Source of the DNA: Nemertoderma westbladi
Lineage: Eukaryota; Animalia; Xenacoelomorpha
Reading direction: 5' to 3'
Assembly (NCBI GenBank): GCA_032718475.1
Contig: JAUCBJ010008427.1
Location: 1 to 64,000, forward strand
Length of the DNA stretch: 64,000 nucleotides
Part shown: positions 2,778 to 39,691 of the stretch, piece by piece
Position numbering within the stretch: the first letter of the stretch is position 1
Layout: each line of letters opens with the position of its first letter
Notes under the pieces: generated by a model
What the model saw: only the letters and a program-made list of their open reading frames with translations
Told to the model about the DNA's origin: nothing
Databases searched by the model: none
Made by a program: the position numbers and the translations under genes

Positions 2778-2781
2778 ACTG

Positions 2782-7935: not shown

Positions 7936-8238
7936 AGAATAAAAACATCACTTTTCTTAAATACAAACAGTAGCATTTATTTCATTTGTCTTCATAATTA
8001 CTAAATTTACAAATGCTGGGCAGTGCATATTATTCATATGTTATATATAAGTTAAAATATATATATGATAAATTTATGACTTTTAATTTTGAAATCACAA
8101 TTCTTCCAATTACACTATAAGAGTGTTTCTAGAAACATACTTGTTTGTTACATGTTTCGAAGCGTTACAAAAACAATGTTTTAATAAAATTTTGCTGCAC
8201 ATAGTTCGTGCATCAATTGTCCAAAATTGTTTCTGGGG

Positions 8239-14227: not shown

Positions 14228-14656
14228 TCATCTCTTTTTAGTCTTTCTTCTCAACCAGCATGCTAGTACTTTTTCATTATGCAACAACTCACTACTAAAT
14301 ATTTTCAATGGATTGACATTTTTTGGACGCTCACATAAATAATATAAGCAATATCCACCACAACTTGTATGAAAAGGATGCTGAATTATCTGACGTGTTC
14401 TTTCCCATACAATTGTATTACGAACCAACCAATCTTCAATTCTTGGAGTTGGATATTGAGCAAATGAATCAAAATATTCACCTTTACCATCACATACATA
14501 TATAGCTACCCAATGAGTTCCAGGCAAATGACTTGGTTGAATATTACTAATGAAGCTCATCTCTCTAGAATCTATCTGAGGAAGCTTATCCACTGGAAAA
14601 GATCCTCTATAATGATTACCAACAGGATAATCATTTAAATCATATGAGTTTAACAT
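14228..14656 (-). CDS. adenain-like (C5) maturation cysteine protease
   Basis: PGTHWVAIY, EYFDSF and QHPFHTSCGGYC give the His-Asp-Cys triad plus the oxyanion Gln. Confidence 0.92.
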   Translation of the reverse strand: MLNSYDLNDYPVGNHYRGSFPVDKLPQIDSREMSFISNIQPSHLPGTHWVAIYVCDGKGEYFDSFAQYPTPRIEDWLVRNTIVWERTRQIIQHPFHTSCGGYCLYYLCERPKNVNPLKIFSSELLHNEKVLACWLRRKTKKR

Positions 14657-15931: not shown

Positions 15932-16102
15932 TGTTATAGATTTTAACAAAATTAACTAAAAATATCATCACAATCGTGTCTTTGACCTTTGGTAACCTTT
16001 CTCCTTTGATATTTATTAACCTTTATCCTTTTCCTTTTTTGTGGTTCGTTTATTGATACATTTGCATTAAGAACCTCACAAATTATTTTATTTGCTACAC
16101 GT

Positions 16103-16528: not shown

Positions 16529-16573
16529 TTAGTAATATAAAATGAAGAAACAATGATTTGTTTTAGTCAACGT

Positions 16574-17369
16574 TTATTGATGCTTTAATAATAATAAAGT
16601 AACAACTACAGTCCCAGAATTAAGGTCTATCAAATTTCCATCATCATCTTTTAACTGAATGTTTATTATTTCAATGTTTTGCATATCAACAGGCTTATAA
16701 TTTATGTTGTTGAATTCACGATGAACCAAAGACCCATAGTCACCTTCATATGGAATTGTTCTCAATAATGGCTTCAATTGATGTCCTACTATAACATTTG
16801 CACTTATATTGGAATAAATATTAATATTACCACTAAAGAAATCACAAGCTTTTTGAATGAAAAAAGTATCTTCATCGAGCATCATAGAACGGTTTATTTG
16901 CAAATATCCATTTTGTTTAATAACTTGGAAGCGTTTTTTTACTAAAGTAATTTTCTTCTTCCAACCCCAACAAACCTGGCATTCGAATCAATTTATCACT
17001 ATGAAAACATCTACGTTTGATTTTTTTCAAAAAGTGAAGCGAAATAGTATTATATATTGTATTAAATTGAATTTTTACTCTCATATCTAAACCACTCGCA
17101 TTCAATTGTTCAATCAAGGTTTCTATATTGTCATAGCAACTGGCAGGTAATATATATCTCTTTATTTTTCCACGAACTCCTTGTGTAGTAATTAGAGTAT
17201 CATTAATATTATACATTGAAGCCAAGTAAGTAATTTCTGATAATCCCACCATCCACATCCCACTCAAACGTAATGGTTGTGATAATTCTACATTAAAATT
17301 TGATGGTTTATTCTGTGGAAATCTTTCAGGTGATGAATTAGAAGGTAAATATAAAACAGTTTGCTGCAT
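16574..17369 (-). pseudogene. minor capsid protein (penton) 2, frameshifted
   Basis: LPSNSS..FPQNKPSNFNVEL..PLRL.G.WMVGLSEI at the N-end. VGHQLKPLLRTI, YKPV and INIQLKDDDG at the C-end. Confidence 0.85.
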
Positions 17370-18463
17370 TATTATTTCTTTTTTTGACGTAAGTGTAAGG
17401 TGATTAGAGTGAATCCTGCATTAAATAGCAAAAGTTCTCCTTTTTCGTTTCGTATCTCAACTGCTATTTGATTAATAATATTGTTTGCTATAGGTCTATA
17501 ATAAACTTTCCTAAAATCACTTGAGATAATCTTATTTTGCTGAAGTGTGATAGGTAATGTACGTAATAATGGCGCTGTTGTATTACCAACAATTGTATGA
17601 GATGTTATATCACTATAAATGAATAAATTTTTGTCTTCCTCTTACCAAATCACATGAAAATGGACTAATTTTAGAAAAATCTTTACGTTGATTAGGTTTC
17701 TGCTTAAGTGATAAGTTATCTGTCTTTCCTATAGCAATGTTCCAATATTGATGCCACTCAACCTCTATATTATCATTCATAAATCCATCAAAGCCTAATA
17801 TAGTTTTCAAATCTCCAGTTATCTCAAATGAAAAATTCTTTGAACAAGTTAGTTTAATTTTATTTGAAAATTTTATATATTTTGTATTTATTGTTGTTTG
17901 AGAGTAACCTAAAGCTTCAAATGTTTCATTAATTTTTTGAACGATTGCTTCCATTCTTGAGTATAATCCTGGAGTAAAAAGAACAACATTTCGAGAACCA
18001 TTTTGATAGTAGAATATAAGATAAGATAAGATAAGATAAGATAATTCTTTTATTCACAAATACTTCTAAGCCTTATTAGGGCTACGAAGGCAGTATACGC
18101 AATACATAGTACACGATACTGATAATTTAGGTGAATAAGCGTCTATAATCAAACAGCTGTCTTAGACAGACTGACTTACCTACGGTAGACCGCCTCGCCC
18201 TACATAAAGTATTAAAGGATTTTAATATACAGTAGATATTGCACAGAAAACATATTAATTTACCCATGCCTACTGTATGCTATACACAACACATACAGCG
18301 CATATACATACAGACAGCACATACACACACACATACATACAGTATTCTAATATACACACATATACAATAAAGGTACTACACAGAGCCGGGCTGCTATATA
18401 TATTATTGAAATCACAAAAAAGGTATAACAAATAAAATTCAATTAACAAAAAGAATTAAAGAT

Positions 18464-20990
18464 CTATGTAATTTCCCCCCTGTTATACCTAGTTAATAAG
18501 TGTTTGTGTAGTTTAAATTTGTATGTTTGGAATTTTTTTATTTTGCGTATTGATATAGGCAGGGCATTCCATTGTTTTATTAGGTATGTACTAATATTGT
18601 AGTGGCCCTGTGTACTTGTTGTGCGTGGAAGTTTCAGATTGTATGTTCTAGAATTTAATTGCGTATTGTTACGTTTTAAATACGGTAGCTCTAGGAGTTT
18701 GAATGGTTTGCTTAAGTTATATATGTATCTAAATAAGAAAATTAGGCCGAAGAAGCTCCTATATTGAGAAAGTGTAGGTATTTTTGCCCTTTCTCGAAGT
18801 TCTGTCCCAGTAGAATCCCTTATTTTTTTACCAAAAATTGTTCTCAAAGCCATATTTTGTATTTTTTCGTATTTGTATAATAACTTTTTGTAACCATGTC
18901 GATTGTGGAGTGAGGTTAATAACATACAGCAGTAGTGGTGATGTGGCAAGACAAGCGATTTATATATATTGATTTTAGTTGAATTGGGTAGTTGGCCTTT
19001 TATTTTTCGAATACAAGACAGTGCAATTGCCATTTTTTGAAGAGATTTTTCGATTTGTTCTTTCCAATTAAGGTATTTATTTATTAAGGGGGGGGTACCC
19101 CCCCTTAATACCCTATATTTTCATGGCCATTACTACTACTTTGAATGTAACTATGTATCTTTTGTGGGGTTCGAGCAACCACAGGGAGGTCAAATAATGA
19201 TCATAACCAAAATATTTGTAATTTTACGTCGCCCTCTAGCGGGCAGGTGCGCAAATGCAAAATTCACTTAAAACGCTACTCTACCGTCAGTTTTCGTCCA
19301 AATTTGGTGAAATTAACACTATTTTCCTCAGGACGGTTCTGCACATGAAACATACTTGGCAGAAAATAAAATTTCGATTTAATTTTCATTTTATAATTAG
19401 AAATATTATTTTTCACTTAAAAATATGGGTTTTATCATGAAAAATGCCACATTGGAGCAGTTAGGAATAAAAATTAAAAAATGTGGCAAGTATGTTTTAT
19501 TACTGACAGCACCAATGTATAAAAAAATTATGAAAATTGGTTCAAAAATGGCGGAGGAGTAGTATTTTGAAAAATGGAAATATCGTGAAATGTAATTCCG
19601 AGATAATTTGCTTTAAAATTTGAACCTTCCCGCTCAAACCTGACTGTCTGTAGTCTGTTAACGGTCAGTAATGTTTGACACTATGTCGTCATACCAACTC
19701 ACTAAAATTATCAATATGGGGGTTTTCGGGGTCGGTGATTTCATTTCTGATGTCTGTTTTAATGTTTGGTGGTATCTAATATGTCTGTCTGACAGCATGT
19801 CTGTCTGTCTGTCTCCTAAATTTTGACGGACAAACTGAAAGACGGAAAGACAGCGATAACTCGAGAACTAAAAAAGATCCCGCCAAACTGTTTCAAGATT
19901 TGAACTCCCCATTAAATTCTGCATCAGATGAAATAGAAAACCCAAAATGTGAAAATTTGACCCAAGGAGGGGGTACCCCCCCCCCCCCCTTAATACACCC
20001 AGATATTTTACTGTAGTGCTTTGTTCTATGGGAGGTGCATTGTCAATATTTAGTTTAATGTTATTAGTCTGTTCGTTGGGTTTTCGAGGTGATAGTAGTA
20101 AGTATTCTGTTTTTTCTGGGTTTAATTTCATCCTATTAGTGTTATAAATTGTCGACATTTTATTGATATTTACACTTAATAAATGGGTTGCTACATGTGG
20201 ATCCTTAGCCGTCGTATATATTACAGTATCGTCAGCATATAAAATAATATTAGCAGAGTGTGATAGGTAGTTGGGGAAGTCGTTGGTGTATAAGGAGAAG
20301 AGTAAGGGGCCACATAGAGTCCCTTGGGGGATTCCTCGTTGTTCTCTCGCCCATGGGGAAGTTATGTTGTCTATTTTAACTTGTTGAACCCTATTGTATA
20401 GATAACTTTCTATAAGTTTAAGAGCAGTTGGATGAAAACCTAGTTGTGATAATTTGCCAAGTAATGTCTGGTATGGTAGTCTACCGAATTAAATGCTTTA
20501 CTTAAGTCAAGAAAAGCAACAGCTACATAGTTGTTTGAGTCTAGCTCAGCTCGCCAACATTCGCTTAAATATAAAATTGCATCCTGTGTAGAATACCCAG
20601 CCCTAAACCCAAATTGGTGTGGGAATAGCAATTTGTTTTTTCTAATGTAGCTTTGCATTTGTAACGAGAGTATTTTTTCAAACACCTTTGCTAAAGGATT
20701 AATAACAGAAATTGGTCTGTAGTTTGTGGGATCGAGTTTATCATCTTTTTTGTAAATTGGAGTTACCACGGCTTTTTTAAATCTTTCTGGGAAATATGAT
20801 TTGGTTAGACAGCTATTAAAAATGTGGGTCAGTTGTATATAAATTTTTGGATTGGTTAATTTCAGTATTTTGATCGGAATAGGGGAGGGCCCGCTTGGTT
20901 TATTTTGATTTAAATTTTTGATGATGTCCATTGTTAAAAATGGTGAAATGTTGGCGAAGGCAAAGTTTGCTTCTAGATTTAGATTGTTAG
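18464..20990 (-). pseudogene. LINE ORF2 reverse transcriptase and C-terminal domain, frameshifted and interrupted
   Basis: NYRPISVI, QFGFR, FLDLSKAF, GIPQGTLCGP, YADD, KTEYL, KYLGV and QWNALP motifs. Confidence 0.9.
19088..19989. mobile_element. non-autonomous TTAA-TSD DNA transposon (Kolobok-like)
   Basis: TTAA at 19084-19087 and 19990-19993, TIR G8-TACCCCC. Removing it restores the RT sequence KYLGVLINKYLNWKEQI. Confidence 0.85.
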
Positions 20991-21833
20991 TGTTCCTATT
21001 TGTCTCTGTTGTGTTATTGGATATGTTAAAAAATACTTAACAAGAGTTAGCAACCAAATATGTTTGAATGGATATATTGTTTTGTAGTAAAATATTGTAA
21101 TGTGTATATAAAGCGTTTGGAATGCTATTTGAAAAATAACACCATTAGTAAATTTTATGTCATACTGCATTATCAGGTACTGCGGTATAATTACCATAAA
21201 TAGCAGCCCGACTAACCAAAGCAATCCAAATTCATATCCCATATATGTTGGAATATTTCCTCGGTATTTGAGTCTAAATTTTTGGAATATCGTTATTAGC
21301 ACAATTTTTTTATTGGTAAATTGTTTTTGTAATAATATTCCTGCAAATACAACTACTAAAGTCGAGAGTTGAGTGAAAATTGTAAGTACTGGCACAGATA
21401 AAATATTCCAACAACATATAAAGGTTTTTATCATTATATTGCACAATATTTCTCTAGAAATTGTACTAATGTTAGAATAGTGGTCATAACCTAGGTCGTT
21501 TAATTTATTGAGATTGTTTATTAATTGCACGAAAAGTATATTTGTAGTTTTATTTTCATATGTATGTACGGGTAGACATGGGTTCATTGGCGGTGTACCA
21601 GGTAGGATAGGTAGAAAATATATACAATAATTTATAACAATGTATATCAATAAGATAGTGACGCTTGAATTAAATTTATGTAATATATTAAAAACCATTT
21701 TTAATAAGATAAAATATTTGTTGGGTGTGGTTAAAAAACTTACACCTGTAATGCAGACCACTAAAGTTAGACATACGCCCAGTAGTAATTCTATTTTATT
21801 GTACAATTGTACATCGACTGACAAAACTGACAA
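20979..21833 (-). CDS. hydrophobic, putatively multi-pass membrane ORF at the position of the missing APE endonuclease
   Basis: 284 stop-free codons in very AT-rich DNA, with several long hydrophobic stretches and no APE motifs. It ends one frameshift away from the RT frame. Confidence 0.5.
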   Translation of the reverse strand: MSVLSVDVQLYNKIELLLGVCLTLVVCITGVSFLTTPNKYFILLKMVFNILHKFNSSVTILLIYIVINYCIYFLPILPGTPPMNPCLPVHTYENKTTNILFVQLINNLNKLNDLGYDHYSNISTISREILCNIMIKTFICCWNILSVPVLTIFTQLSTLVVVFAGILLQKQFTNKKIVLITIFQKFRLKYRGNIPTYMGYEFGLLWLVGLLFMVIIPQYLIMQYDIKFTNGVIFQIAFQTLYIHITIFYYKTIYPFKHIWLLTLVKYFLTYPITQQRQIGTLTI

Positions 21834-21930
21834 AAATACAATTATATCTTTTATAAAAATGAATGTAATTAATTAAGTCATTTAGAGGTGGTTATTATAT
21901 TGTATGACTCTACTGTCATCCCCTAATATA

Positions 21931-23697
21931 TTAATACTGGGCTTTGGATTCGCCTATCGCTCTCATTAGATCTATAACAGCGTTGAACACCCTTCCTCCT
22001 TCACCGTGATTCGCCCACCCATCGAAACCCTTACCGGTAGTGGTGTGCGGTATGTTAGTACCGCCACGTCCTGATACTTCTCTATAACTAGAGCGGTGTG
22101 CGTCCAGATTATCTACTGACTGGGGTATCCAGCTCGATTTCGGCTGTAGGGTTGGAGTAGGGTTAGTAGGTTGGTGTTCTCTATAGGACCCCGGTTGCGG
22201 CCAGTAATAGGCCCTGTGGGTCCGGATCAATGGCCGTTCAGATGGTTGACTTGGATGTTGAATATTGTTGTTATTAAAGCGCGCTCCCATTGGGTCCCGG
22301 GGTTGTGACTTTCCAAATAACGCACGTTTAATATTGCTAACATATAGACCCATAGCGTTATGAGAAAGGTGTTTATCATCGTATAGATGTATCGTGGTAA
22401 TGTTAGCATGATGAACGAAGGTTATATCTAAATCTCTACAAACTTTGCTAATTTCGTTGTTAATTGGGGTAAAGCTTTTGTCCGCTCGCGCAATAAGTGC
22501 AGATAAACAGATGTTCGCATCCGGCCATTTCTGATTAATGGCTTTGACGCTCTCCTTCAGATTTCTCGTGAGTTCTACTGGGTTGCGATATTGACTAGCG
22601 CTATCAACATCATTAGTTCCTGTCTGTATATATACGTGCTCTATATTATTATATATACTCGAAGCTGCTTGTATATTTTCTAACAATATTTGTGACGTTT
22701 GTGTTGGTACCATTTTAGCGAATCGGTTTATTTTGCGTGGGTAGACAAACTTCCTATTGCTATCCATAAATAGCAGTGTCGAGATTTCTTCAGTAGAACG
22801 CCTTCCATTGTCGACCTTGGTGAATTTGTTTGGTGCCGCTATGGGCGCACCTCTTTCAGGAGTAATTTCGTTCAGGCTATTACATTGTAAGCCCACCGAA
22901 GTTGTTGTTTCAGTGTTACGTGGCAATACCGTATTATCAGCCGTATTTCCACTGTCACCAGTCAACAATGATGAGTTGTCCGGAAGAAGGACTGGTGATT
23001 CGTTTAGGCCCCTACCGATTACTGATAGTGAGGATGTCTCATTCTGAGTTGAGCTGAGTACCGGTAATGGAAACGATTGAGAATCCTCAGTCAGACCCTG
23101 GCCCTGCCTGATAGATATCCGCGGGGTTGGGGGGTTGGCGTTTGTATTAGTTCCCTCGTTAGATAGTTGTCCCATTAACTCGGTCCCCTTTCCAGAAGAG
23201 TAGTGTGTGAGGAGTATTATCTGTTCTTCAAGTACCTTTATTCGCTTAAGATCCTGTTCGCGTATAGTAAAAAGTGTTTTTAACGAATCCTCGAGGTATA
23301 GCAATCGGTTGATTATCGTTTCCCTGGCAACATCCGGAGTGTCTGCAGATTCGGTAATTATAGTTGGATCCGGATTAGAATTAGTAACGCCTACATGAAA
23401 GTTTTTGGGTCCATCACCGTTATCTTCATTAGTTGAGATCTCTGAGCAGGAAGACCATGAGCTGTCATCATCTGTGAGCGTGTTGTCATTGGTGTTGGTG
23501 TATCCATTTTCTTCAAATTGTTTATTGAGTCGTATAATTAATGAGGATCGAGATCCTGTAATCGATAGATTAAGGAACTGCAGTTTCTTTCTCAGTTTTT
23601 TATTGCTCCAAGCTCCTAAGTCGGGTAGATCTAGTAGTCGGCTAGACTCCATCAGAAGAAATTGTATTTGTAAGTACCGGTTTGGGCAGTTGGGCAC
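21931..23697 (-). CDS. LINE ORF1: SAP domain, coiled coil, SGNH esterase
   Basis: SAP-like WSNKKLRKKLQFLNLSITGSRSSLIIRL. Esterase blocks FMDSN, QTGTNDV and DDKHLS. Confidence 0.82.
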   Translation of the reverse strand: MPNCPNRYLQIQFLLMESSRLLDLPDLGAWSNKKLRKKLQFLNLSITGSRSSLIIRLNKQFEENGYTNTNDNTLTDDDSSWSSCSEISTNEDNGDGPKNFHVGVTNSNPDPTIITESADTPDVARETIINRLLYLEDSLKTLFTIREQDLKRIKVLEEQIILLTHYSSGKGTELMGQLSNEGTNTNANPPTPRISIRQGQGLTEDSQSFPLPVLSSTQNETSSLSVIGRGLNESPVLLPDNSSLLTGDSGNTADNTVLPRNTETTTSVGLQCNSLNEITPERGAPIAAPNKFTKVDNGRRSTEEISTLLFMDSNRKFVYPRKINRFAKMVPTQTSQILLENIQAASSIYNNIEHVYIQTGTNDVDSASQYRNPVELTRNLKESVKAINQKWPDANICLSALIARADKSFTPINNEISKVCRDLDITFVHHANITTIHLYDDKHLSHNAMGLYVSNIKRALFGKSQPRDPMGARFNNNNIQHPSQPSERPLIRTHRAYYWPQPGSYREHQPTNPTPTLQPKSSWIPQSVDNLDAHRSSYREVSGRGGTNIPHTTTGKGFDGWANHGEGGRVFNAVIDLMRAIGESKAQY

Positions 23698-24116
23698 AGC
23701 CTGGCCCTTACTCTACTGTGAAAACAGTCAAACGTCGGGGACAACACTCAAAATGTCCGGACAACACTCAAAATCATGAATTCAGTATTCTGCTAAATAT
23801 TTAGCTACCGGTATTGTACCGCTACTGGTATACTGGATTTCAAAAACTAAACTGTGATATTTGCTCAATGTTATAATATGAAGAAGAATATTGAATTTCA
23901 GATAAACCAACTTCTACATCTGATGACAAATATAATATATATGGAAGCTCAACTATAAATGAACTAATGAATTATTGGGGAACCTCGAAGTTGGACCATT
24001 AGAAAATAATGTAATATAACTATTCATTTTTGGTAATTATATTCATAAAGATTATTATTATAACTCGTTTATAACCGATACAATTGTATGCAAATTAAGT
24101 TAAATTTAATCATAAC

Positions 24117-25184
24117 TTATTTACGTAGTTGGTTTCCATCAATCCACATATTTCGCTTATTACCCTTAAATCGTACTAAATATTGCTTGCTTTTGTTTTT
24201 TATACGTTCTTTGACTATTTTTTCAATTGGAAAAATATCTGTAGCTTGCTTCACTAGTTGAAGTTCTTCTTCATAGAAGGTGCCCTCAATATCTCTACCA
24301 ACAGAATCAGTTATATGATACATTGGATATGGAAGACGATCTCTTCTAATACATTTTATCTTAAAAATTTCATTTGTCCAGTTCCCAATATATGATTTTT
24401 CAAATACATGTTTAGCAATATTAAGTCGTACACTATCACCTATTTTCAACTTTGGTTTAGAGAGCTTCTTAACTGTACCAAAAAGTTTTAGTCTCACTAT
24501 AGCTTGATTTTGCTTATTTACTTGTAAAGGCTTCATTCCTATTGATTTATGAAATGTATTATTATATGTATTAATAATTTTAGGAAGGATATCTACCCAT
24601 TTAGTATTTCTTCTACGAGTAAATATTTTGAACATCCGTGACTTTAAAGTACAATTAAAACGTTCACAAATTGCGGCTTTGAATTGGGATCGAGTTGTAT
24701 AATAATTCAACTTATTTTTCTTTAGATAAGTCAGTACTATGCGATTATTGAATTCAAGTCCTTGATCACTCACTAAATGACGTGGTTTTCCATCCAAAAA
24801 AATTATTTCTAAAGCTACCTTAATTTCTTTCCCTGTTTTTCGTTTTAGTGGTAATGCCCAACCTTGTTTTGAAAAACAATCAATTGCTGTTATAATATAA
24901 TTGAAACCAGAATTAACATTGCTATATTTCTGCATATCAACCAAATCTGTTTGTATAGTATCTCTTATACCCGAAAAAAACATTCTAGAAGTGGGATAAT
25001 GCCTTCTAGCTGATCTATGAAGAGTGTAGGTCGGTTGACTCGTTAGCCAATTTTTTACAATACTTTGCTTCAACCCGCTCGCTTTGCTTAGTGCTTTTAC
25101 GCCACCAAACCCTGCAGTGTTTGAAATATTGTAGTAAACAGCAGCTAGCCAATGATCTCGTTGGTTCGCCATCACTTTGGTCAT
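24117..25184 (-). CDS. Polinton retroviral-like integrase (rve) with C-terminal chromodomain-like region
   Basis: YTLHR, QTDLVDM, IDCFSK, SDQGLEF, CERFN (D,D,E), WTNEIF, GTFYEEELQ, IEKIV...YLVRFKG. The ORF is open. Confidence 0.95.
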   Translation of the reverse strand: MTKVMANQRDHWLAAVYYNISNTAGFGGVKALSKASGLKQSIVKNWLTSQPTYTLHRSARRHYPTSRMFFSGIRDTIQTDLVDMQKYSNVNSGFNYIITAIDCFSKQGWALPLKRKTGKEIKVALEIIFLDGKPRHLVSDQGLEFNNRIVLTYLKKNKLNYYTTRSQFKAAICERFNCTLKSRMFKIFTRRRNTKWVDILPKIINTYNNTFHKSIGMKPLQVNKQNQAIVRLKLFGTVKKLSKPKLKIGDSVRLNIAKHVFEKSYIGNWTNEIFKIKCIRRDRLPYPMYHITDSVGRDIEGTFYEEELQLVKQATDIFPIEKIVKERIKNKSKQYLVRFKGNKRNMWIDGNQLRK

Positions 25185-25278: not shown

Positions 25279-25506
25279 TTATATATAGTTCAAAAAAGCA
25301 ATGTCGTTTATTGTTTTGATATGTTTTTTAATAGTTATTTGCTTTGAATTCTTGAGTGTCTTCTTCTTCTTCTTTTTCTTCATCTTCTTCTTCTTCTTGA
25401 TATTTTTTAAGAGTTTTGTTTGTAATGCAATAGGTTTAGTATATTTTTGTTGTTCTAATAAATTATGTTGTTCTGGTATTATGAGATACATTTTATGAAA
25501 TGACAT
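25279..25506 (-). CDS. small Lys-rich Polinton protein
   Basis: KMYLI start and poly-Lys tract, tightly packed between core genes. Confidence 0.4.
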   Translation of the reverse strand: MSFHKMYLIIPEQHNLLEQQKYTKPIALQTKLLKNIKKKKKMKKKKKKKTLKNSKQITIKKHIKTINDIAFLNYI

Positions 25507-25850: not shown

Positions 25851-26035
25851 ATTATTAACTTATTTAAAAAAAAAAAGAACATAAAACTTCAAAACAAATA
25901 TTTATTAACTAATACGCTTATAAGTGACAAATTTGCATAAAATATATACACAAACTAATTAATGATAGAAAGTAGCATATTATTGATATTAAAAAATAAT
26001 ATTTCCAAATGATATATTGATCAATATTATTATCA

Positions 26036-26671
26036 TTATTGTAAATAAACACAATGTTTATGTGTAAACAGATGCCCCCGAACACGATAATTATCATTTG
26101 TTAACTGATGAAAATCAATGATTAACGGATGAAATGGTTCTGCAGTTGCATCACGAAAGGTATCAATTAAGAATTTAGGGTTTGTTGGATTCATCTGATA
26201 TGAAAGTACACGAATTTGTGTTTGGTCTCTAGGAATTTTAAAAATAATAAAGTATGTACTATTAATTGAACGAGTTCTTGCTTCTGCTCCTCTTTGATAT
26301 AAGTTTTGTGTTAATAAAATAACTACAGAATGTGTATGTCAAGCAATTTTGGTGAATAATTGTGTAGTTTGCTTTGAACTTTCTAGCTCACTCATAAGAT
26401 CATCAAAAACTAATATTGTATTTCTCTGAATATTTTCATTTAAATTTTCAGGAATTGTATTTAATGTAGTTATATTTATCCCTCTAATGTTAGGTTTTGT
26501 TTGACCATAGAACCATATGATATTATTAGAAGGAGTATCAAATATAGTTTTCCTATTTTGAAGCAGTTTTTCAACAAATGTTGTTTTACCACTTCCAGAT
26601 GGTCCTGCTATTAATATTGTGCTTCCAAATCTAAATCGTACATCAATAGGGTTATGAGATTTGCTAGCCAT
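26036..26671 (-). pseudogene. A32/FtsK-type genome packaging ATPase with one in-frame stop
   Basis: Walker A GPSGSGKT and Walker B LVFDDL. After the TGA at 26339 the frame continues HTHSVVFLLTQNLYQRG...FKIPRDQTQI. Confidence 0.9.
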
Positions 26672-27142
26672 TATTTTATAAAATGTTTATCATTATTATT
26701 AAAAGTTTGATATTTTCTTGCGCTTATTACAATTTTCAAATATAAAATCTATATGAATTTTTTAAAAATAGAATTAGGCTATATATAGGATAACAATTAG
26801 TAACTAAGCCAATATCAAATTAATATAATTACAACAAATTACTATAATGAATGCTACTCCTTATGCATAAGATTACATAAAAATATGACTTTAATTGAGA
26901 TAATAATTCTCATTCAAAACTAATCAAGCATATGATAAAATTGGCTATATATAATATAGTATATTTAAAGCTATTTCTACTTAAGAGTCAGCAAAAACCT
27001 AATTTACTATAAAGAAATGGAGACATTAAGTTTATAAGATAATCATATTTACATATTATTATTTCCTAAAGTTCATTTAATAAATAAAGTATATATAGAA
27101 TACAATAAGATTTAGCGTTTGAATAACAAAATATAAATTATG

Positions 27143-27715
27143 CTAATTGCATATTATATATTTACAAAATAATTTATACACATTATCAAACATAGTTGGA
27201 TGAGTCATAGATACTATCTTACCAGTATGAAAAATACTAAAATATGATGTATTTATGAAGCATCGTATACCACAAAATAGTTCAGGGTTATAATCTAAGT
27301 GAAAGCTATCATTATTTATTTTAAAATATCCACATTTTTCAAGACATTTTCTAAAGTTGATTTCAAGAAAGATAATGCGAGTTTCACTATTTCGTTTTAA
27401 ATTTGCTATTTTCAAACTGGTAAGGTTTGCTATGTAATCAATTTGTAAAAGTAAGTATATTACTACATAGGCCAACGATTGTTATAGCACCACTCTCAAA
27501 AAACATAAAAGTTGCCTCATGATTGCGAAAAATTAACATTTTCGGTTTTGTTACCAAATGACCATCTATTTGTTTAGATAACTGTATTAAATCTAGTTTT
27601 GAAGAGCAGTATGCAGAATATTGTCGATTAACAATTTGATTTAGTTTAGAAGAAATGATTTGTTTGTCTTTCTTTAATGTTGCATTATCATTAGTTTTTA
27701 GTGTTATTCTAAAAA
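27143..27715 (-). pseudogene. TATA-binding protein (TBP)-like gene with two repeats and one frameshift
   Basis: Repeat 1: IVNRQYSAYCSSKLDLIQL...PKMLIFRNHEATFMFFESGAITIVG. Repeat 2: INF...YNPELFCGI...FSIFHTGKIV. The start codon was not identified. Confidence 0.72.
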
Positions 27716-27754
27716 TAGAAGAATAGAATGATTATGAGTTTTCTATTATTAGTT

Positions 27755-30700
27755 TTATGTGTTGATATTATTACTATCATTGTCATAGTTGCTGGCATGT
27801 CCATGTTGCTGCCCTAAAACCACTTGTGGAGCAATGGTTTTAGGTATAATGGGACGAGTTAACTTTGTGATATAGTGTCCATAGGGATAGCTGATATTTT
27901 TATCCTTCCACCAACGTTTAGTCTCCCATAAAGTTAATGATTTCTTATGAATTCGGGCAGTTTTTACTTGATGTTTGTCCGATCTAAAGGCATTGGTATA
28001 CCGAAACAGCTCAGTTTCATTGAAATAGCAATCCAAATAATCTTGATGAGAAATTTGCTTTGCTACAACACTTTTTGATACACTTTTTGAAGTTTTTTTC
28101 TTAGGAGCATCATATGCTTCAAATGAGTATACTTTTGGTTTTAAAAATACCCATGATTTGTAGAGACAGCCTTTTGATTCATCCTTCAAAAAACCTAACG
28201 ATGCTTTATATTTATTTGTATATAGATGATATGAGGTATCATAGTTTGAAGTATCTAAAAACCCACCATTATACATTGCAGTTAAAAATTTATCGTGTGA
28301 AGTATTAGTGATGCTAAGCATGAGGCTATCAGTATCTCCACCACAAGCTCGAATTTGGCATCCTAATTGCTGTTCTATAGGCTTAATTTTAGAGTAGAAA
28401 TAATCATACATTTCCAATTTTGAGAGATCAAGGATAGCTATACCAATCAATACAGCTTGATTTAAAGTTACAGCTTCCTTGCAAAATGTATGTCCAGATA
28501 AATTTGGTGAAAATACAACAAAAGACTCATGATTGGGTTTAGCGACCAATTTTTCACATTCCTCGCTTGATGTTGCTAGCCTAAAATTTATTCTATTACA
28601 CACTTTTTGCAAACATTTCCCATATAGAGCATTATTTAAAAGCTTATAGAACAGAACTTCGAATGGATTTTTGGCAGATTGTCGCTTATTTGTATTAAAA
28701 GCTATATAGTCTCTAAATATGTATTTTTGTGAAAATGAATAAATATTATGAATTTTTGTAATTTTGTAATTTTGAGTCCCATTTTTAGATAAAATTGTAA
28801 TAGTTTAATATGAACTCCATATTCATATTTAGGAAATTGATGAAGTAAAAGTTTGGTGGATACATCATTGTATTTTTTGATGGAAGCATCGTCTCTAATA
28901 TTATAATGCTCCCACTGGTTTTTCATATGTGGGCTGAGAAGAGAAGATGGTACGCTCATCTTCTCAGGACCCAATGGCATATCAATAGTGAGATCTTGAA
29001 CTTTTTTTGGATAATCGAGGCTTACTACACAAAAATATCCAGTATCACCATCAGCATCGATTGTGGCCAAGTCAATTGGTATTGTGACTTTTTTGATGTT
29101 GGCATATGGAAGCTTTTGAGATAGAGCATGACCATAAAGATTGTTTGCATCCACTGGTATCAAATATTTTTCTGGTTTGGAAGAGTCATATTCAGGTTTT
29201 CCAGGGATATTGGCCAACTCCAAATGCGAATTTATAAAAACCATTCCTCCACGGATAGAACATTCAAATTGAGAATAAATGGAAGAATCACTCAATAGCT
29301 CAATTGAAATATCTATGAATTTTAGAGCAGCATCATGTGTTAATCCTGGTGCTGTATAATAATGGAGTGGTTCTAGACTATAGTTAGTTAGGCAGAGTTG
29401 ACGAAACTCTTCGAAAACATCAGCTAGGAGAGTAATATAAAGACAGAGATAGCCCATTAGATAGTCATAGATAGTCTGACATTGAAGTTCATCCCAAGCA
29501 GTGAGTGCACGTTGATAATCTTGAATAGAACAGTCTTCGAGTTTAAGATCATTATAAAAGTCTGCAATAGGAGGTAGTTTGGTTTCATGAAGGTTGGAAA
29601 TATTTTGGATATAGCTATAGGGAAAGACACCTTTATTCTTAATAGTAGAGTCTGTAATGTTTGGATATAGTGCTTTCATTTGAGTTAGCGTATGTGGAAT
29701 AGCTGTGGATAGATTGGAATTGTTGGAGGTAAGATAGCTACTAAGGTTGTCTAAACTAGCAGTCATAAATTGAAATGAGTCCAAAAAATTAAGGCAGATG
29801 GTATCTTTCAATGTGGCAGATTTTGCATTTTCATCTATTGAAATGTTGCTTGTAAATTTATATAATTTTCAGTCGTTTGCGGTATTATATTAAAATGCCA
29901 ATGTTTGCGTGCACTTGTGGTCATGCCTTCCTTTAACAGTATATGTAGGTCATATTTTCGGAGATTATGAAAAATGATGGCAAATTTATTTCTTTTTATT
30001 GATAATTTACGATTACAACTGCTGACGCAAGCAGCACCACGATACTTTCCAGTATAATGGTCATGGTCGCGAACCTTTGTAGTTAAATTTTTAGAAAGGT
30101 CTAGTCCATAAGAGTCAGGAGTAAGGATACAATTACAAGAGTAGCAGTTTGTTGCAAGATTAAAGTTTTGTTGTTCAGTCTGTGTTAAGTGCATGTGTAT
30201 GTTAGTATTTGTGCCAGAGATTGACCATTCATAGAGTTTCCTACAGTGAGATTCTAAAGCAGTTAATAAATCATTTATTACATGATTGGAGCCATCATCT
30301 TTGAAAGTTTGAATTGGAGTAGGTGGTCGGTTTATTAAATTGCGGTTAGGTATAGTATAAAATGCAGCCGCGCTTGCGATGTGTTTTTGAGGAAATTTGG
30401 GGTCTGATATAGGTTCTAGAATAGTTTCTATATCAGAGTAGATGCAGAAAGGAGGAGAAAGTGTTTTATCGAGTCTGTTAAATTTAAGTGTTAGTTTGTC
30501 AGGAGTAGGCATTCGCTCCACTTGTCATTTAGCGGAATAGCAAAGGTCACGGTGTGTTTCTAATGCATTTGACAAATAAAATGGTTGTGTGCAACGCTCA
30601 CAGAAAAACAAACGGTTATGTGAGCCTGTTCTTGTGTTGAATAGGCGGCCCAAGTCTGATACCGCTGAATAATGTCTAAGAAGACTGTTTGTATTGTCAA

Positions 30701-31990
30701 TGAAAAGTAGAGTTAATACAGTTTTATTTAAGCAATGATATTTGTCAGGTTGGCGTAATATTGTAACCGATTTTCGTGCCAGAGGAGTAAGTTTATACAA
30801 TACTTGTTATTATCCTTTTCAAATTTATCAATGCCTGTTTTTATATCTATAGGAAAGGTAAGAGATGAAAAATCGAATTCATTAAGGTAAGGTGTAAATG
30901 TTGAAACTCTGCTAATATTTTGTTTTTTCCTATCAATTTTATGCTGGAAGGCTGTAGCTAAAACTGCATACTGAAAACATTGACCTAATGGACAGTCGAC
31001 GTTAATAGTACACATTTTGCCAGCCAAATTTTTTGGTATCTTTCCGACATTACCTTTAAAATATGCATTGCGATTATAGACAGAAATTTGAATATTAATC
31101 CTATCTATTTGTACTAACCACCAACCAGAACCCATATGTACAAAACTAGCAACTAGCTCATCTATCCTACCAACAGCATTTTGGTACCAACGTTCAAAAT
31201 CATTTTCGGATGTAATTTCGTAATTTTCCCCACTAGATTTGAAACGAAATGTTTCCATTTGCACCCCATCCCCTTGCTCCCGTTCCAAAATTAAAAATAT
31301 TGAAAGCCAAATTTTTATAAAAACACCTAAATTATTCGAAAAATGTTGATTCACCCTCCCCCAAACATAAGGCCTATTGGCCTATTTTCGTTGAGTGTTT
31401 CTTCTATATCTAGATGAGTGGTTGTTAGTTTATTACTATACTCAAATAACCTGTTGTGGGCAGATGTAGTGTTGGGAAAAATTTCTTCAAAATTATTTGG
31501 AGAAGAAGAAGTAGATGGTCCAGCCCCAACTTGTCCCACTGGTGATGACACTGGTGATGTAGATGCAAACACATATTGATGTTTTCTTTTACGTGAGATC
31601 AACTGAGTGTAACAAGAGTGTTCTTTAAAAGAAGAGAGAGTGAATGTTTCACCGCATTTGCAACTCGAAGGTGTCAACGAACCTTCGAGTTGCAAATGCG
31701 GTGAAACATTCACTCTCTCTTCTTTTAAAGAACACTCTTGTTACACTCAGTTGATCTCACGTAAAAGAAAACATCAATATGTGTTTGCATCTACATGAAA
31801 CAGTGAAACCAGTTCCCCCTTCTTCGCAAAGAGATTGGTGTGCGATTGCAGTTTTCTTTTCGGATGTGAAGACATTGCAATTGTCACATTTATATTGTTT
31901 GAAGTGTGTTTGAAGATGATGGCTAAGATTATCGGATCTCATCTCAATTTCGCAGACAGGGCAAACGATTATTCGGGAAGACATAGGCAT
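27755..31990 (-). pseudogene. protein-primed family B DNA polymerase with N-terminal C2H2 fingers, EndoVII-like insert and 3'-5' exonuclease; fragmented
   Basis: CPVC..HLQTH, IYSDIET, VRDHDHYTGKYRGAAC, FHNLRKYD, FLDSFQF, KGVFPY, IRGG, DANNLYG, KLLNNALYGK, GGDTDS, LKPKVYS. Several stops and frameshifts. Confidence 0.93.
31557..31796. repeat. perfect 116-bp fold-back inverted repeat with 8-nt loop
   Basis: 31557-31672 is the exact reverse complement of 31681-31796. The loop is GTCAACGA. Confidence 0.95.
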
Positions 31991-32532
31991 TGTGAATGAA
32001 AAAGTGAACTTGAATTTTCAAATGAAATATAATTTTGCAGTGTAGTAAAGACTTGGTTGATAAAATAATAACTTTGCTGATATAACTTGATGAGAGATAA
32101 ATAGTTGAATTGTTGTAAAGTTTTTTTTTTGTAGAATAACTTTGTTGATACAACTTGATGAGAGATAAATACTTGAATTATTGTAAAGTTTTTGTAGAAT
32201 AACTTGTTGAATTGTTGTATTAGTATGATAATAATAAATTATATTAAATAATAAATGAAAACAATTTATAACAAAAATGTAAAGTTTACTTGAATATGAG
32301 TGATTATTCAAAAGAATGAAAAAACTTTTGCTAAAGACGCTTTATATATGGATTTGTATAAGGATTTGTCCAATCGGAACCAATAGCCAATCAAAAAGTA
32401 GCCAAGAAGTATAGGTTAGCCAATTAGGAAAGGTTTCTTTACATATGGTTTAAAAATAGACTATTGATGCCGTTATGACTGGAAAAATAATCCTTTTATA
32501 ATCCTTTAAAAAATTGTCATTTTATGAAAAGA

Positions 32533-33966: not shown

Positions 33967-36200
33967 TATGGGCTGTGAGAATTGGGGGTGGGCCAATTAT
34001 TTGTTCTAATATAATGTCTTCATGGTTTGCGGATTGGCCACGCAGAAGAATTCCCGTGTGCTGGTATGGAATGATGGAGTGAGCGATCCGGGAAAATGAA
34101 ATTTTGGAGCCCGTTATAAAGTTTTTGACATCCGATATGTCGTATTTTGCCATAGATTTTCCTGGTACCACAGATTCTGATTGTGAAAGTTTGTACTTTA
34201 GTTTGATGTTAAAGAGGACCTTTTTGTGGTCCGGTGTGGGATTCACATCCGCACCGTGGATCTCAAATCCACGTCTCACATTCTTGAAAGTTTCACTGAT
34301 GACCTCTGATAGTATTCGTTTCACATTTCTAATTGTAATGTTCAATCCGACAAAGTACCGAAACGGTAGGTTTTCGTCCATGAAACTGTCCAAAGAAAGC
34401 GCCTCAACTTGGAGGCAATCGAGATACGGCGTGTATGAAAGTTTCACTAAAATTTGTATGCTTTCTTTAACAGAGTTACAGAAATGTTGAACGGTCTTCT
34501 GTTTTTTTCTTGGAGGTTCCATTTCCACACAAATCACGTGTGAGTTTTCATAACGGAACTGTCGAGAAAGACAAACATATGAAGTATGAGTGGTAATAAA
34601 CGTTGAATCAAACAATTTTGACAGGAACTAAAGTTCTCGAATTGAGTAATTCTTTTGAAATATAATACATAATAGTAATATATAATAGAGTCAAGCTTTT
34701 TTAGCTGCACAAATATATCAATTTTCATATATAAGTATAAACTCTCTTGTTACAACATGATAAAATTAATCTAATTAAACCATTTGAATTCCGTTTGAAC
34801 ATTGCTAGATATCATGTTGGAGTTTGGTAATGTTAGAGGTATGGCAAATCCCAAAATAATTATAAAGAATGACGAAAAACAGCGTAAATATTGCAATTCA
34901 TATCGTAGTAGTCGAGACACCCGCAAAAAGCTTGACTCTAATCAGTTTCCACTACAGTATATATAGAGCTACTGTACTTGATACAGCAATACTATACAAT
35001 CCAAAACTCCAAAACAAAACAGAAGACAGTTTAAAATTTCTGTAACTCTGTTGAAGAAAGCGTACATCATTTAGATTAGTTAGCTCAGTCAGCAAGGCGT
35101 CAACTATTGATATTTGGAGTGATTGTTTCGCGATGGCCGGTTCGACCCCCCCTCTATTCCAAGCTGTGCTCCCTCCTCACCAGGCCGTATCCGATATATC
35201 GGGTGCTAGTGGGTATCGGTGGTGAAGTGGTGGTATATTCCCCACGTGGTCGCTTATATACATAGGTCGCTTGCAGTAGTTGAGTGGAGTGTATACCATC
35301 AAGTCATCATTGGGTAGCACTATAAAGCTCTAAAGGGTGTGACAAAAAAAACAATCATTTTAAAATGGTCCATAAAAAAATTATGTTGTGAGGTAGAACC
35401 TCAAATTTTGGCACACATATTCCAAATTGGTTCTATTTTCACAAAATATGCGTAATTTTATCCAAAATTTAGAGTAAACGCCAATGTCCCACATAGATTG
35501 GCGCCCAACGGTGTCCATGTGAGGTGTATAGAACAATAATACACGTCCGAGTTAATTCCATAATAAACATTATAATTGTAACAGACAATTTTACCGTACA
35601 CAATAGGGTACATGCCTATGTCTAAACATTTGCAATAAATCATATGATTATACATAACAGGGTATCCAGCCAAGTCATTTTGTAAAAATTCGTAAATGGT
35701 ATAAATCGGCCCTTAAATCTCGCCATTTAGCAAATCTCTCTGTGAGTGGCTGATTGTATTTTAATGTCACAAGGTTGTTTCTGATTGTGCCGGTATATTT
35801 ATTTCCCTCCTACACAATGCTGCTGGGGCTGCCTTCCCTTCCCGGTTATAACAGATGTTGAGATCGGTTATATAAAAGTTTTGTAAACATTTTCTAGGAA
35901 CTAGCATCCCACTGTTGCTATGGAAACCTCATCTGAAGTAATTCTTCATACCACCTGTAACTTGAGATTACTTTACTATGGGTTGGGGTTGCCCACTGTT
36001 CTTTTATAGGATTGCCGTATGACGTCTCGTTGCTATGGTAACAGACATATTCGAAAAGTTAGATTTTGTTCTCCAGCCAGAGTGCACTGGACAATTTTTG
36101 CTCTCAACTCTGTCACTAGTTGTGTATTGCTACTGGCGATATTTTACCAAAGTTTCACCGATGTACCTAGATGGTTGCTATGTTATCACTAAGCAAACCT
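33967..36200 (-). repeat. partial copy B of element Y; gene X exon 1 (ATG at 34522) is cut by the Polinton insertion
   Basis: Direct match to about 9631-12048 and inverted match to 38794-41057. Confidence 0.9.
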
Positions 36201-36498: not shown

Positions 36499-39400
36499 AA
36501 GGGTGTGACAAAAAAACCAATCATTCTAAAGAAAAGCCAGCTAAATGTGACCATAAATAGAAACCTTCGAATTTTTTGTTCTGCATAGGAAGATTTGCTC
36601 AATTACTCCTAATCTAGCATGTTTTCGTAACTGCTATTACCGATTTTTGAAAATTATTGACAACGTGCGCTAAGGTATATACAGGGGGTCAGCTTTGGAA
36701 CATATGATATACTGGTGTAGCTACATTGTGGCGGAATTTCCAAACATGAGTTACATGGCCGAAATATTCATGAAAGTTGTATATATTTTATGTCCGAATA
36801 GGCTCCATAGGGTTACTTTCGGATTGGATCATGTATGGACCAACCATGACCAATAAATCCGTATTCATTTTTTGGTGAAATTTTCGACAAAATTGGCAAA
36901 AATTCTAAAAATCTGATTTTGAAGGAATCACTTTGTATCTCTGTTCAAACTAAATGAACGCGATGATCCCCCCGGCCGCGTGTGGGGTCGTGACGGGTCG
37001 CTCTGCGGCTGTAGCAAGGGGCACCGGAGGACCTCCGAATTGGCGAGCAATCACTCACGGTGGGCTTAGAGCTGGTAGCTAGCACGTCGGGTTTGCACTC
37101 GGCTGAAGTCCGACAGGGTCGGATGGATATCTGGAACAGTACGACCTAATAATTCCCTACAGGGTACACCAATATCCAACTATCATACACCCACACACCC
37201 ACACACCCTCAATCATACAGTAGGTATTCGCACGGTTGCCACCGTGGAAACAAACGCTCGGTAGGATAGCCTATCAGCTACTGTGTCGGGCACAGACCTA
37301 CAGTAGGCATCTGCCTACGCCCGGTATAGGCGGAGGACAGTCCAGGTCGCAAACCAATGAGTAGTGGCGGGCGCAACAGTAAGACTGGGACTTACAAACT
37401 CCACCGAACTGGGTTCGGAAAATGACTAACGATAGACTTTTAGCATCCAATCACAAAACGTCTCGATTGATTGGACTTCGCCGCAGACACCTCCATGGCG
37501 ACGCTGGGCTGGTTTTGTCCCCATTATCTGAAGAGTTGCACCGATAATGTGTAAAGTAGACTATTATTCTGGCTGCCAAACTGCTTGTAACACCAATATA
37601 TCACTGGTAATAAGTGAGACTGGTAGATATACGATACCGTGAAATACTAGAGAATGATATTAAATGCTGTAAAATGCTGGAACTGTTGGTAGATAAGATA
37701 TAAGTTACTGACAGAATGGAAATGTTGGAAATGGTATCTAATTATTGGTTTCACTCAGCCAATTACTAACTACTGCCCGCTCACTCTGTGCACTCAATTG
37801 ATATACCAAATCAGCTAGCCATGTTGGTCTGGATCATCCCTGGATATACTTAAACCGGCCAATGAGAATTGGTTATCATATATCGAGCTGTGTCATGGCT
37901 AAGCTGAGGGTATCACTGAGTGCCCATCACAAGTCAAGCGAGGTAGCAGTTAGATGAATCATGAATGGGCAGAGGTGAATCTCTCTGTAGCACAAGCGAG
38001 ACAAGGGTATCACAGGCTACTTACTATTAGTACCCAACCGAATTGTAAACAACCTACAACTAAGCAGTCGGACAGCAGCCCCACATGGTAAATGACTAGA
38101 ATTATAGTAGATAAGGAACTAATAATGATAGCAATAGGGTATATGCCTATGTCTGAACATTTCGAATAAATCATCTGATTATACATAACAGGGCATCCTA
38201 AGACCGTGACGTGGTCATTTTGTAAAAATTCCCTGAGGAAATAGGGTAAATCAGGGTCCAAACATGGACATTTTCCAGCTGCTCTGTTAGTGGATGATTG
38301 TATTGTGACGTCACAGGGTTATTACCGATTGTAACAGGTAGTATTATTTCCTACCTACACAATGGTTCCTGGGCTGCTAGTGCTGAGAGTTTATTTTGTA
38401 TGTTACATAATAGTAATAAAAACATTTTTGGAAATATTTAGAGAAACTGGCACCTGCCATTGCTATGGAAACAGCGTCAGAAGTTATTTATTCAACCACC
38501 TATAACTCGGGAATACAGTATTGTATCAACTTGTCATTGCAAGTATGAGTTTGTGTTACCAACTACAGTAACATATCTCAGTATATCTATCTTCTGTGTC
38601 CCCGTTGCTATGGTGACAGATGTAACGCGAAATTAAACATTTCGCTTATAGACAGGTAACGTTAGCGAATTTTCAAACGATGACGATTGGAATAGTTGCA
38701 TACCATAGTTGTGAGAAATTTCTTACAGTACCATAAACTGAGCCGAGAATCCTGATCCACAGTGAACAGAGTATCCAATTGGAGCCTTCATTCAGGTTTG
38801 CTTAGTGATACCATAGCAACCATCTAGGTACATCGGTGAAACTTTGGTAAAATATCGCCAGTAGCAATACCCAACTAGTGACAGAGTTGAGAGCAAAAAT
38901 TGTCCGGTGCACTCTGGCTGGAGAACAAAATCTAACTTTTCGAATATGTCTGTTACCATAGCAACGAGACGTCATATGGCAATCCTACTCGTATATAAAA
39001 GAGCAGTGGGCAACCCCAACCCACACACACCAGAACCAGTCGATATAGTAAAGTAATCTCAAGTTACAGGTGGTATGAAGAATTACCATAGCAACAGTGG
39101 GATGCTAGTTCCTAGAAAATGTTTACAAAACTTTTATATAACCGATCTCAACATCTGTTATAACCGGGAAGGGAAGGCAGCCCCAGCAGCATTGTGTAGG
39201 AGGGAAATAAATATACCGGCACAATCAGAAACAACCTTGTGACATTAAAATACAATCAGCCACTCACAGAGCGATTTGCTAAATGGCGAGATTTAAGGGC
39301 CGATTTATACCATTTACAGGATGAATTTTTACAAAATGACTCGGCCACAAGTCTTAGGATACCCTGTTATGTATAATCATATGATTTATTGCAAATGTTT

Positions 39401-39691
39401 AGACATAGGCATGTACCCTATTGTGTACGGTAAAATTGTCTGTTACAATTATAATGTTTATTATGGAATTAACTCGGACGTGTATTATTGTTCTATACAC
39501 CTCACATGGACACCGTTGGGCGCCAATCTATGTGGGACATTGGCGTTTACACTAAATTTTGGATAAAATTACGCATATTTTGTGAAAATAGAACCAATTT
39601 GGAATATGTGTGCCAAAATTTGAGGTTCTACCTCACAACAGAATTTTTTTATGGACCATTTTAAAATGATTGTTTTTTTTGTCACACCCTT
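36499..39691. mobile_element. non-autonomous TA-flanked (Tc1/mariner-like) element with internal imperfect inverted arms
   Basis: TIR AAGGGTGTGACAAAAAAA(A/C)CAATCATT, TA at 36497-36498 and 39692-39693. About 38130-38640 is a diverged inverted copy of about 38920-39425. Confidence 0.65.

Follow-up and report, generated by a model that had tools for sequence, protein, structure and literature searches.

A family of small TBP-like proteins in Polintons, with a decayed member in Nemertoderma westbladi, and a candidate promoter box ahead of virion genes

ORF24 of KSHV (Kaposi's sarcoma-associated herpesvirus), a beta/gamma-herpesvirus protein, is folded like TATA-binding protein (TBP) and works at a minimal, non-canonical TATA-like box (TATTWAA) ahead of late genes, in a system that uses host RNA polymerase II (Pol II) and host-type promoters for its early genes (PMC12529657). 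The TBPs of large double-stranded DNA (dsDNA) viruses have two lobes, keep a phenylalanine in the second hairpin of each, and have lost the basic patch of the N lobe (PMC7221094). Polintons of the Alpha adintovirus kind carry a DNA polymerase B (PolB) of family PF03175, an rve integrase with a chromodomain, a packaging ATPase, a protease, and putative capsid genes (PMC8502044). The same paper (Starrett 2021; bioRxiv 10.1101/697771) uses the label TBP in its Fig. 5 legend on non-canonical MELD elements, for a TBP-like gene of a MELD virus whose PolB is adintovirus-like; the label stands in the legend only, and we found no family, residue, or promoter analysis in the text examined. Beyond this label, we found no literature on a Polinton TBP or late-promoter box, in a search made mostly by titles and abstracts and outside Repbase, figures, and subscription journals. 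Features of all these systems recur, some as predictions, in the 64,000-nucleotide (nt) stretch of Nemertoderma westbladi DNA analyzed here (the window), which carries a decayed Polinton on its minus strand, from ~32 kb down to 14.2 kb, with a broken TBP-like gene just downstream of polB. The gene is a broken copy of a mini-TBP that related elements carry intact, and we propose, with a somewhat better than even chance of being right, that the intact protein reads a non-standard ATAA[AG]C box ahead of integrase and virion genes and acts as a late switch by bringing in host TFIIB and Pol II.

The two TBP-type repeats that the original prediction placed immediately behind polB are both present, on the minus strand and in two overlapping frames:

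27438..27731, minus strand: open frame of 97 amino acids (aa) with TBP repeat 1 (N lobe); PF00352 E 0.0014, family profile 38.8 bits
Repeat 1 landmarks, minus strand: Asn69 equivalent at 27629; Lys-Pro replacing the Phe99 stirrup at 27548-27543; Phe116 equivalent at 27500
27143..27481, minus strand: open frame of 112 aa with the linker helix and TBP repeat 2 (C lobe); PF00352 E 0.0083, family profile 20.0 bits
Repeat 2 landmarks, minus strand: Y-N-P-E-L-F stirrup with the Phe190 equivalent at 27277; Phe207 equivalent at 27232; stop at 27145-27143

The quoted TBP motifs are found letter for letter, and the track of open reading frames (ORFs) had shown repeat 2 alone because the repeat 1 frame falls below the 100-aa cut-off. 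When 24,736 Pfam families were scanned, each half matched a single family, PF00352 (TBP), at 18.8 and 16.4 bits, both under the curated cut-off of 22.9; read through with an X at the break, the protein reached 31.3 bits (E 1.9e-7) in two stretches, and intact relatives scored 49-66 bits. The halves did better on a profile of 88 intact relatives from which the window was excluded (the bits listed above), the best of 600 shuffles reaching 7.7. On these higher family-profile scores and on the signature residues Lys-Pro at F99, Ser159, and Thr161, we conclude that the window protein is a member of a Polinton mini-TBP family. No eukaryotic TBP was found by phmmer at E values up to 10, and the sole sequence matches in the PDB at that limit were three archaeal TBP entries (E 1.4-1.6), which indicates that the protein is distant from any host TBP. 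The fold points the same way. The Atlas model of one intact relative, L017, has template modeling (TM) scores of 0.86-0.87 to TBP models. The window C lobe was modeled with a predicted local distance difference test score (pLDDT) of 76.6 on a 92-row family alignment, on which the model leans and which biases the fold result; its best four matches among 48,161 chains are TBP (VIA-align; Z 10.0 to 8.7, next fold 7.7), with Z 10.0 and a root mean square deviation of 1.6 Å over 76 aligned residues to 1mp9_B. Repeat 1 folded alone with no alignment reached a pLDDT of 50.5. Giant-virus TBPs are prominent among the viral fold matches, with a best E of 0.0023 and none under 0.001. The divergent viral TBP originally predicted is supported by the read-through score, by the fold matches, by the lack of a eukaryotic TBP in the phmmer search, and by the intact gene in sister Polintons.

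The relatives were obtained only via loci anchored on polB (n = 84). A single-sequence search with repeat 2 found no relatives in 1.84 billion representatives, none of the 44 candidates from a search with the X read-through was related, and viral contigs searched with repeat 2, polB, or the family alignment yielded nothing related; one more distant, cellular-like TBP was found (L085). A TBP-like ORF lies downstream of polB in five of the 84 loci (L012, where it is cut by the locus end, L015, L017, L019, and L071), and a later scan added L086. By hand count, 26 of the 84 have at least 2 kb behind polB. Ten of these fall within one strongly supported polB clade, to which the window also belongs, and a TBP is seen in 5 of them; among the 16 loci outside the clade it is seen in none. 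This count is a pattern and not a test, given that kin share labels and that the polB tree is a quick version in which the window sits on a long branch. The TBP-ATPase-pX order of the window was found in L017 and L086 too. Of 977 candidates from a profile search, in whose alignment the two window halves formed separate rows, 197 had E ≤ 1e-5; among the 120 of these matches listed, the 88 of 150-200 aa were aligned for residue counts, and the genomic context of family members is known for the L-loci alone. The relatives, with a median identity of 48%, have ~5 residues ahead of the core. The C-terminal 70 residues of 64 PolB homologues, inspected without a profile, showed no fused TBP.

Eukaryotic TBPs score slightly higher on the family profile than archaeal ones (73-86 vs 70-75 bits), so the ultimate source of the gene is probably eukaryotic. 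The same slight preference could be cited for a recent host TBP retrocopy or a neutral passenger, an explanation that we regard as extremely unlikely: phmmer finds no eukaryotic TBP, repeat 1 scores 38.8 bits on the Polinton family vs 18.8 on the Pfam TBP family, and the gene order is common to distant elements. Further, 14 of the differences to other copies (among 40 of 49) are synonymous vs 20% expected (p 0.02, uncorrected for transition bias), and 18 of the 40 fall at third codon positions (p 0.08), the synonymous excess being a weak sign of past selection. As regards a recent retrocopy missing from sister Polintons, the gene is intact in sister Polintons, and this version is already refuted. 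Overall, judged by sequence, a family of ~165-aa Polinton mini-TBPs exists, and the window gene is a member and hence no host retrocopy. We also note that L071 (2793-3720) holds a second TBP subgroup with a longer N lobe and Arg-Pro replacing Lys-Pro; the gene adjoining it has no Pfam match, and its product may resemble PC4. The L086 contig, with its Polinton TBP-ATPase-pX order, is filed in a bacterial metagenome-assembled genome and is probably misbinned eukaryotic or viral DNA. The pairs P0077/P0015 and P0093/P0011 (two mini-TBPs and two PolB homologues) have matching longest-contig sizes, 45,383 and 66,946, which hints that the pairs lie on the same contigs.

The window copy has no single intact ORF of ~165-190 aa; it is split over two frames and has no in-frame start. 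The features that bear on this are as follows:

27441..27481, minus strand: overlap of the two frames, in which one frame gives way to the other through a lesion of the window copy or an error in its assembly
27683..27691, minus strand: two ATGs (27691 and 27685), likely the remnant gene start, out of frame with repeat 1 and then followed by a stop
27709..27724, minus strand: acceptor-like pyrimidine tract (11 of 13 pyrimidines) with AG, a possible acceptor for a non-coding leader

In three of four public runs (2 samples, 2 studies), near-identical contigs cross the junction in one frame, which indicates that the split is a lesion or an assembly error of the window copy; each of these runs has a single contig over the junction with ~60 letters on either side, one of the three may be the window's own source, and the fourth run is without cover there. 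More diverged contigs cover parts of the gene, indicating that several related copies carry it, and the sister-copy contigs cease aligning at 27689. We rejected an intron at the frame junction because of these unbroken contigs and the linker length. That the window copy makes a protein from two frames joined by splicing or by a programmed frameshift is highly unlikely. The overlap of the frames by ~40 nt and the acceptor-like site at 27710 would suit it, but, besides the contigs that read across, the gene forms one ORF in five complete relatives and runs open to the locus end in a sixth, the linker of ~28 residues in the window is already within the family's range of 28-33, and the genes adjoining the TBP-like gene are broken as well. 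The window's Polinton copy is probably dead; the original prediction had not mentioned that the element as a whole is decayed.

In two respects, the gene start differs from what was originally predicted. No ATG had been thought evident; two occur, 17-19 codons before the first TBP strand, though in another frame and then followed by a stop, and they sit at a place that matches the starts of the relatives, which are mostly 5-16 residues before Asn69. A pyrimidine-rich AG noted at about 27716 is actually at 27710-27709, and the spliced 5' exon proposed from it is unneeded as coding sequence: each intact relative encodes the protein in one ORF that has a Met of its own, and the split belongs to the window copy alone. 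A non-coding leader may be spliced to the AG at 27710; a comparable acceptor-like site is found in 6% of 80-nt windows of the element and before the TBP start in one of six intact relatives. Acceptor-like sites also occur at L017 4457 and L019 7763, 11 nt before a 90-aa ORF that precedes and overlaps the TBP gene, and may point to spliced leaders for early genes.

The residue pattern of the family, given here in yeast TBP numbering with counts over the 88 relatives, combines a conserved core with a polar DNA face and the loss of the basic regulator-binding helix. Phenylalanines are kept at F116 (88/88), F190 (88/88), and F207 (87/88), their intercalating role following PMC12529657, whereas a phenylalanine near position 99 is present in 5 of 88 relatives, Lys-Pro standing there instead; Phe99 is absent in the window too, so that three of the canonical four (F99, F116, F190, and F207) are kept. 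N69 is retained in 84 and L189 in 79 relatives. In cellular TBP, glutamates of the C lobe contact TFIIB, and the basic patch of the N lobe binds TFIIA, TAF1, Mot1, and Brf1 (PMC7221094). The TFIIB-binding glutamates are kept in the family (E186 in 82 and E188 in 87 of 88), and the 22-residue helix of the N lobe has a mean of 1.3 Lys/Arg in the relatives and 1 in the window, compared with 6 in yeast. Further replacements, some of them on the DNA face, are near-fixed (V71 to Asn in 81, V122 to Arg in 86, T124 to Met in 85, N159 to Ser in 82, V161 to Thr in 82, L205 to Asn in 80, and T215 to Cys in 82). The window copy retains the three phenylalanines, N69, E188, L189, Lys-Pro, Ser159, and Thr161.

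A de novo search for 7-mers ahead of the genes of the element ranked ATAARCG first. In the 16-kb core, ATAA[AG]CG occurs eight times on the coding strand and not once on the other. It precedes 7 of 10 virion-module gene starts, two of which share one site, and the three starts without it abut the upstream stop; six of the seven virion-module sites lie 6-130 nt ahead of a start (p 1.2e-4, for a pattern chosen on the same data). The TBP and polB genes of the window have no such box ahead of them, nor has the protease gene, which has an ATAAAC at 85 nt. The virion-module sites are as follows:

26721..26727, minus strand: ATAAGCG box, 56 nt before the ATPase ATG
25915..25921, minus strand: ATAAGCG box, 71 nt before the pX-like gene
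25305..25311, minus strand: ATAAACG box, also AATAAA, with a small ORF (25254) starting 57 nt and the integrase 127 nt downstream
24066..24160, minus strand: two boxes, ATAAGCG at 24160 and ATAAACG at 24072, 133 and 45 nt before the first penton-like ATG
16571..16577, minus strand: ATAAACG box, also AATAAA at the upstream stop, 70 nt before the ORF at 16507-16103
16047..16053, minus strand: ATAAACG box, also AATAAA, 122 nt before the putative major capsid gene

Among the TBP-bearing relatives, ATAA[AG]C is enriched ahead of ORFs, mostly 32-47 nt from the ATG: it precedes 7 of 8 ORFs in L017 (p 4e-4), 3 of 6 in L012 (p 0.016), and 4 of 6 in L086. L037 and L072, which are without box enrichment, both lie outside the polB clade of all TBP-bearing elements. 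It is found ahead of the TBP gene itself neither in the window nor in L017, L015, L019, or L086. A different arrangement lies ahead of the polB-TBP block of the window:

32341..32424, minus strand: host-type promoter-like module with four CCAAT/ATTGG boxes and TATATAAA at 32348, a putative promoter of the polB-TBP block

In the mechanism that we propose, this host-type CCAAT/TATA promoter would have the polB-TBP block transcribed first. The rebuilt, polar DNA face of the mini-TBP would then prefer the box, whose C departs from the cellular consensus TATAWAWR (PMC4457894), and the acidic stirrup would bring in TFIIB. Host TFIIB is proposed because no TFIIB-like gene is seen in the element: among 36 ORFs scanned (32 of them from the window, several ORFs staying unassigned), none had a TFIIB or cyclin-fold Pfam match. 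The loss of the basic helix would free the mini-TBP from Mot1/BTAF1, TAF1, NC2, and TFIIA. The idea, already present in the original prediction, that host Pol II is redirected to the promoters of the element draws indirect support from the kept TFIIB stirrup of the family and the candidate promoter box, and it stays a prediction.

Several findings weigh against this mechanism, besides the dependence of the C-lobe model on its alignment and the low score of repeat 1 folded alone. First, the window copy has Asn at E186 and Ala at K120 and also departs from its family at V122, T124, and the C-terminal Cys-Gly, which makes its TFIIB contact less sure; these departures may stem from decay or from lineage. 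Second, the box score of the window, with a double count removed, is reached by 11 of 1000 random-window sets and by 141 of 1000 dinucleotide shuffles (1 of 400 and 6 of 400 with the double count), so that the box in the window alone is suggestive and of modest significance after correction for the pattern search. Third, AATAAA can be read at three of the eight window sites, which lie on or close to an upstream stop; one site falls within polB; and the spacing, at 45-133 nt, is looser than that of the relatives. Fourth, box and TBP do not always go together: the box precedes 6 of 6 ORFs in L021 (p 0.001), 6 of 6 in L032 (p 0.0004), 3 of 4 in L061 (p 0.009), and 2 of 2 in L041 (p 0.08), where no TBP was seen in the DNA covered, whereas it is weak in TBP-bearing L015 and L019 (one of three ORFs each) and precedes none of three ORFs in the 2.7 kb of TBP-bearing L071, whose TBP is of another subgroup. 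Finally, cellular TBP itself can bind TATA elements with G-C pairs, through Hoogsteen pairing (PMC4402545; such elements also in PMC8643651).

The last two points would also suit a mini-TBP that is a decoy or modulator and dampens host transcription by binding host TFIIB or host promoters, with the box being read by host TBP as a weak variant of TATA, as would a TFIIB stirrup that is the best-kept surface of a protein with Phe99 lost and its DNA face rebuilt. We consider this unlikely. The replacements on the DNA face (Arg122, Ser159, and Asn205) are near-fixed in a family with a median identity of 48%, which suggests a selected DNA target, and the four loci with the box and no TBP seen are incomplete and belong to the same polB clade as the TBP-bearing elements. 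L037 and L072, which are without box enrichment, both lie outside the polB clade of all TBP-bearing elements.

The AATAAA words and the shuffle result speak for a further alternative, which to us is distinctly improbable: that the box signals polyadenylation or termination, or is a by-product of composition, and that the TBP-fold protein has another nucleic acid role, for example at terminal repeats or single-stranded replication intermediates. Also in its favor, 13 of the 21 ATAA[AG]C sites of the virion module are not near a start, and a Giardia TBP lacking key phenylalanines prefers single-stranded DNA (PMC12209930). It fits poorly with the base before ATAAAC, which is rarely A in the relatives (L017 0/10, L032 1/12, and L041 0/6), indicating that the signal there is not AATAAA, with the clustering of the box at 32-47 nt from the ATG, or with the strand bias in the window, where ATAAR is followed by CG in 8 of 101 cases on the coding strand vs 0 of 91 on the other, at a CG frequency of 1.4%.

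The element around the gene has the hallmarks of a Polinton or Alpha adintovirus (pfam03175 PolB, rve integrase, packaging ATPase, and protease), its PolB, which belongs to pfam03175, being what PMC8502044 terms Alpha. On the minus strand, its genes run polB (in pieces), TBP-like gene, packaging ATPase, pX-like gene, integrase, two penton-like genes, a further ORF, putative capsid gene, and protease, the pX, penton, and capsid names resting on weak matches or position:

27755..31990, minus strand: PolB of the protein-primed kind, broken into several pieces, its N-terminal region having zinc-finger and endonuclease-VII-like parts; PF03175 E 1.7e-8, PF02945 E 0.0033; stop codon at 27755-27757
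26036..26671, minus strand: packaging ATPase with one internal stop, by Pfam scan and relatives' genes
25850-25509, minus strand: pX-like gene; PF05829 E 1.5e-5
25254 (start), minus strand: small ORF ahead of the integrase
25184-24117, minus strand: integrase with a chromodomain; rve E 4e-8
24027 (ATG), minus strand: first penton-like gene, split by a long interspersed nuclear element (LINE); named by position and tblastn likeness to relatives, without Pfam match
16507-16103, minus strand: unnamed ORF upstream of the putative capsid gene
15931-14667, minus strand: putative major capsid gene, broken; named by position and relatives, without Pfam match
14228..14656, minus strand: maturation protease, abutting the putative capsid gene; PF02902 E 0.0039

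No clean terminus or target-site duplication was found around the element. A 2.3-2.6-kb repeat flanks it in three copies, two direct and one inverted (9528-12069, 33967-36200, and 38773-41161), and carries an ORF of ~186 codons without Pfam match and the TATAAGCG word; these repeats are perhaps very long terminal repeats plus an extra copy. Within the 5' part of polB lies a perfect 116-nt inverted repeat with an 8-nt spacer (31557-31796). The LINE that interrupts the first penton-like gene measures 5.8 kb (18090-23860); its first ORF is SAP/SGNH-like, and pieces of a reverse transcriptase are also present. A 514-aa ORF on the plus strand (12151-13805) lies behind CCAAT-like repeats and faces the virion module; Pfam and the Atlas gave it no assignment, and tblastn found no match to it among the 84 related loci. 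The region 2730-8049 is a separate mobile element; it has ORFs with domains of the Ulp1-type protease and GIY-YIG kinds, and 1.25 kb of it is directly duplicated (2782-4032 and 6799-8049).

Taken together, the evidence describes a real, family-wide Polinton gene with a plausible cognate promoter box, a variant of the theme of late transcription by viral TBPs. The window copy is a fossil, and the interest resides in the family. If the mechanism holds, a dedicated TBP with a matching box would be a direct handle on how Polintons time their capsid genes and on whether animal Polintons make particles, the box would mark the late genes in any copy, and expression of the TBP should precede the box-driven transcripts; an intact relative would prefer its own box over TATAAAAG and over scrambled DNA. 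Such a family would be a natural experiment in TBP specificity. A viral life of these elements is argued for in PMC8502044.

Compared with cellular TBP and TBP-related factors (PF00352), the mini-TBP shares the fold, the two repeats, F116, F190, F207, N69, and the eukaryote-type E-L-F stirrup; unlike them, it has Lys-Pro for Phe99 and a polar DNA face and lacks the N-terminal tail and the basic helix, and its family profile leaves the first 39 positions out of the alignment with the N lobe of those solved TBPs that match best. The core genes that PMC8502044 gives for Alpha adintoviruses and Polintons do not include TBP, and the window copy, by comparison, is decayed and interrupted by a LINE. 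In large dsDNA viruses, a TBP is almost always accompanied by a TFIIB of the virus itself, and only ~40% conservation is seen at the first stirrup glutamate of their TBPs (PMC7221094, Ravarani et al. 2020), whereas 82 of 88 mini-TBPs keep it and no TFIIB-like gene is seen in the ~20-kb element. ORF24 is large, acts in a six-protein complex, binds Pol II directly, and is modeled as incompatible with TFIIB (PMC12529657); the mini-TBP, by its sequence, would be a bare saddle of ~165 aa that keeps the TFIIB stirrup, and no herpesvirus-type partner protein was found among the 36 ORFs scanned against Pfam. If our proposal is right, a bare TBP with a host TFIIB contact and a changed DNA target would be a third design beside those of the giant viruses and the herpesviruses. 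More tentatively, at a little under even odds in our estimate, one Polinton clade would combine a single TBP of this size, a private ATAA[AG]C box, escape from host regulators, and borrowed TFIIB and Pol II into the smallest viral late switch described, in which protein and box co-vary between lineages, which would provide natural orthogonal TBP-promoter pairs and speak for a timed, virion-producing cycle; equally tentative, and part of that co-variation, would be the variants of the box by lineage, ATAARCG in the window and ATAAACA in the relatives.
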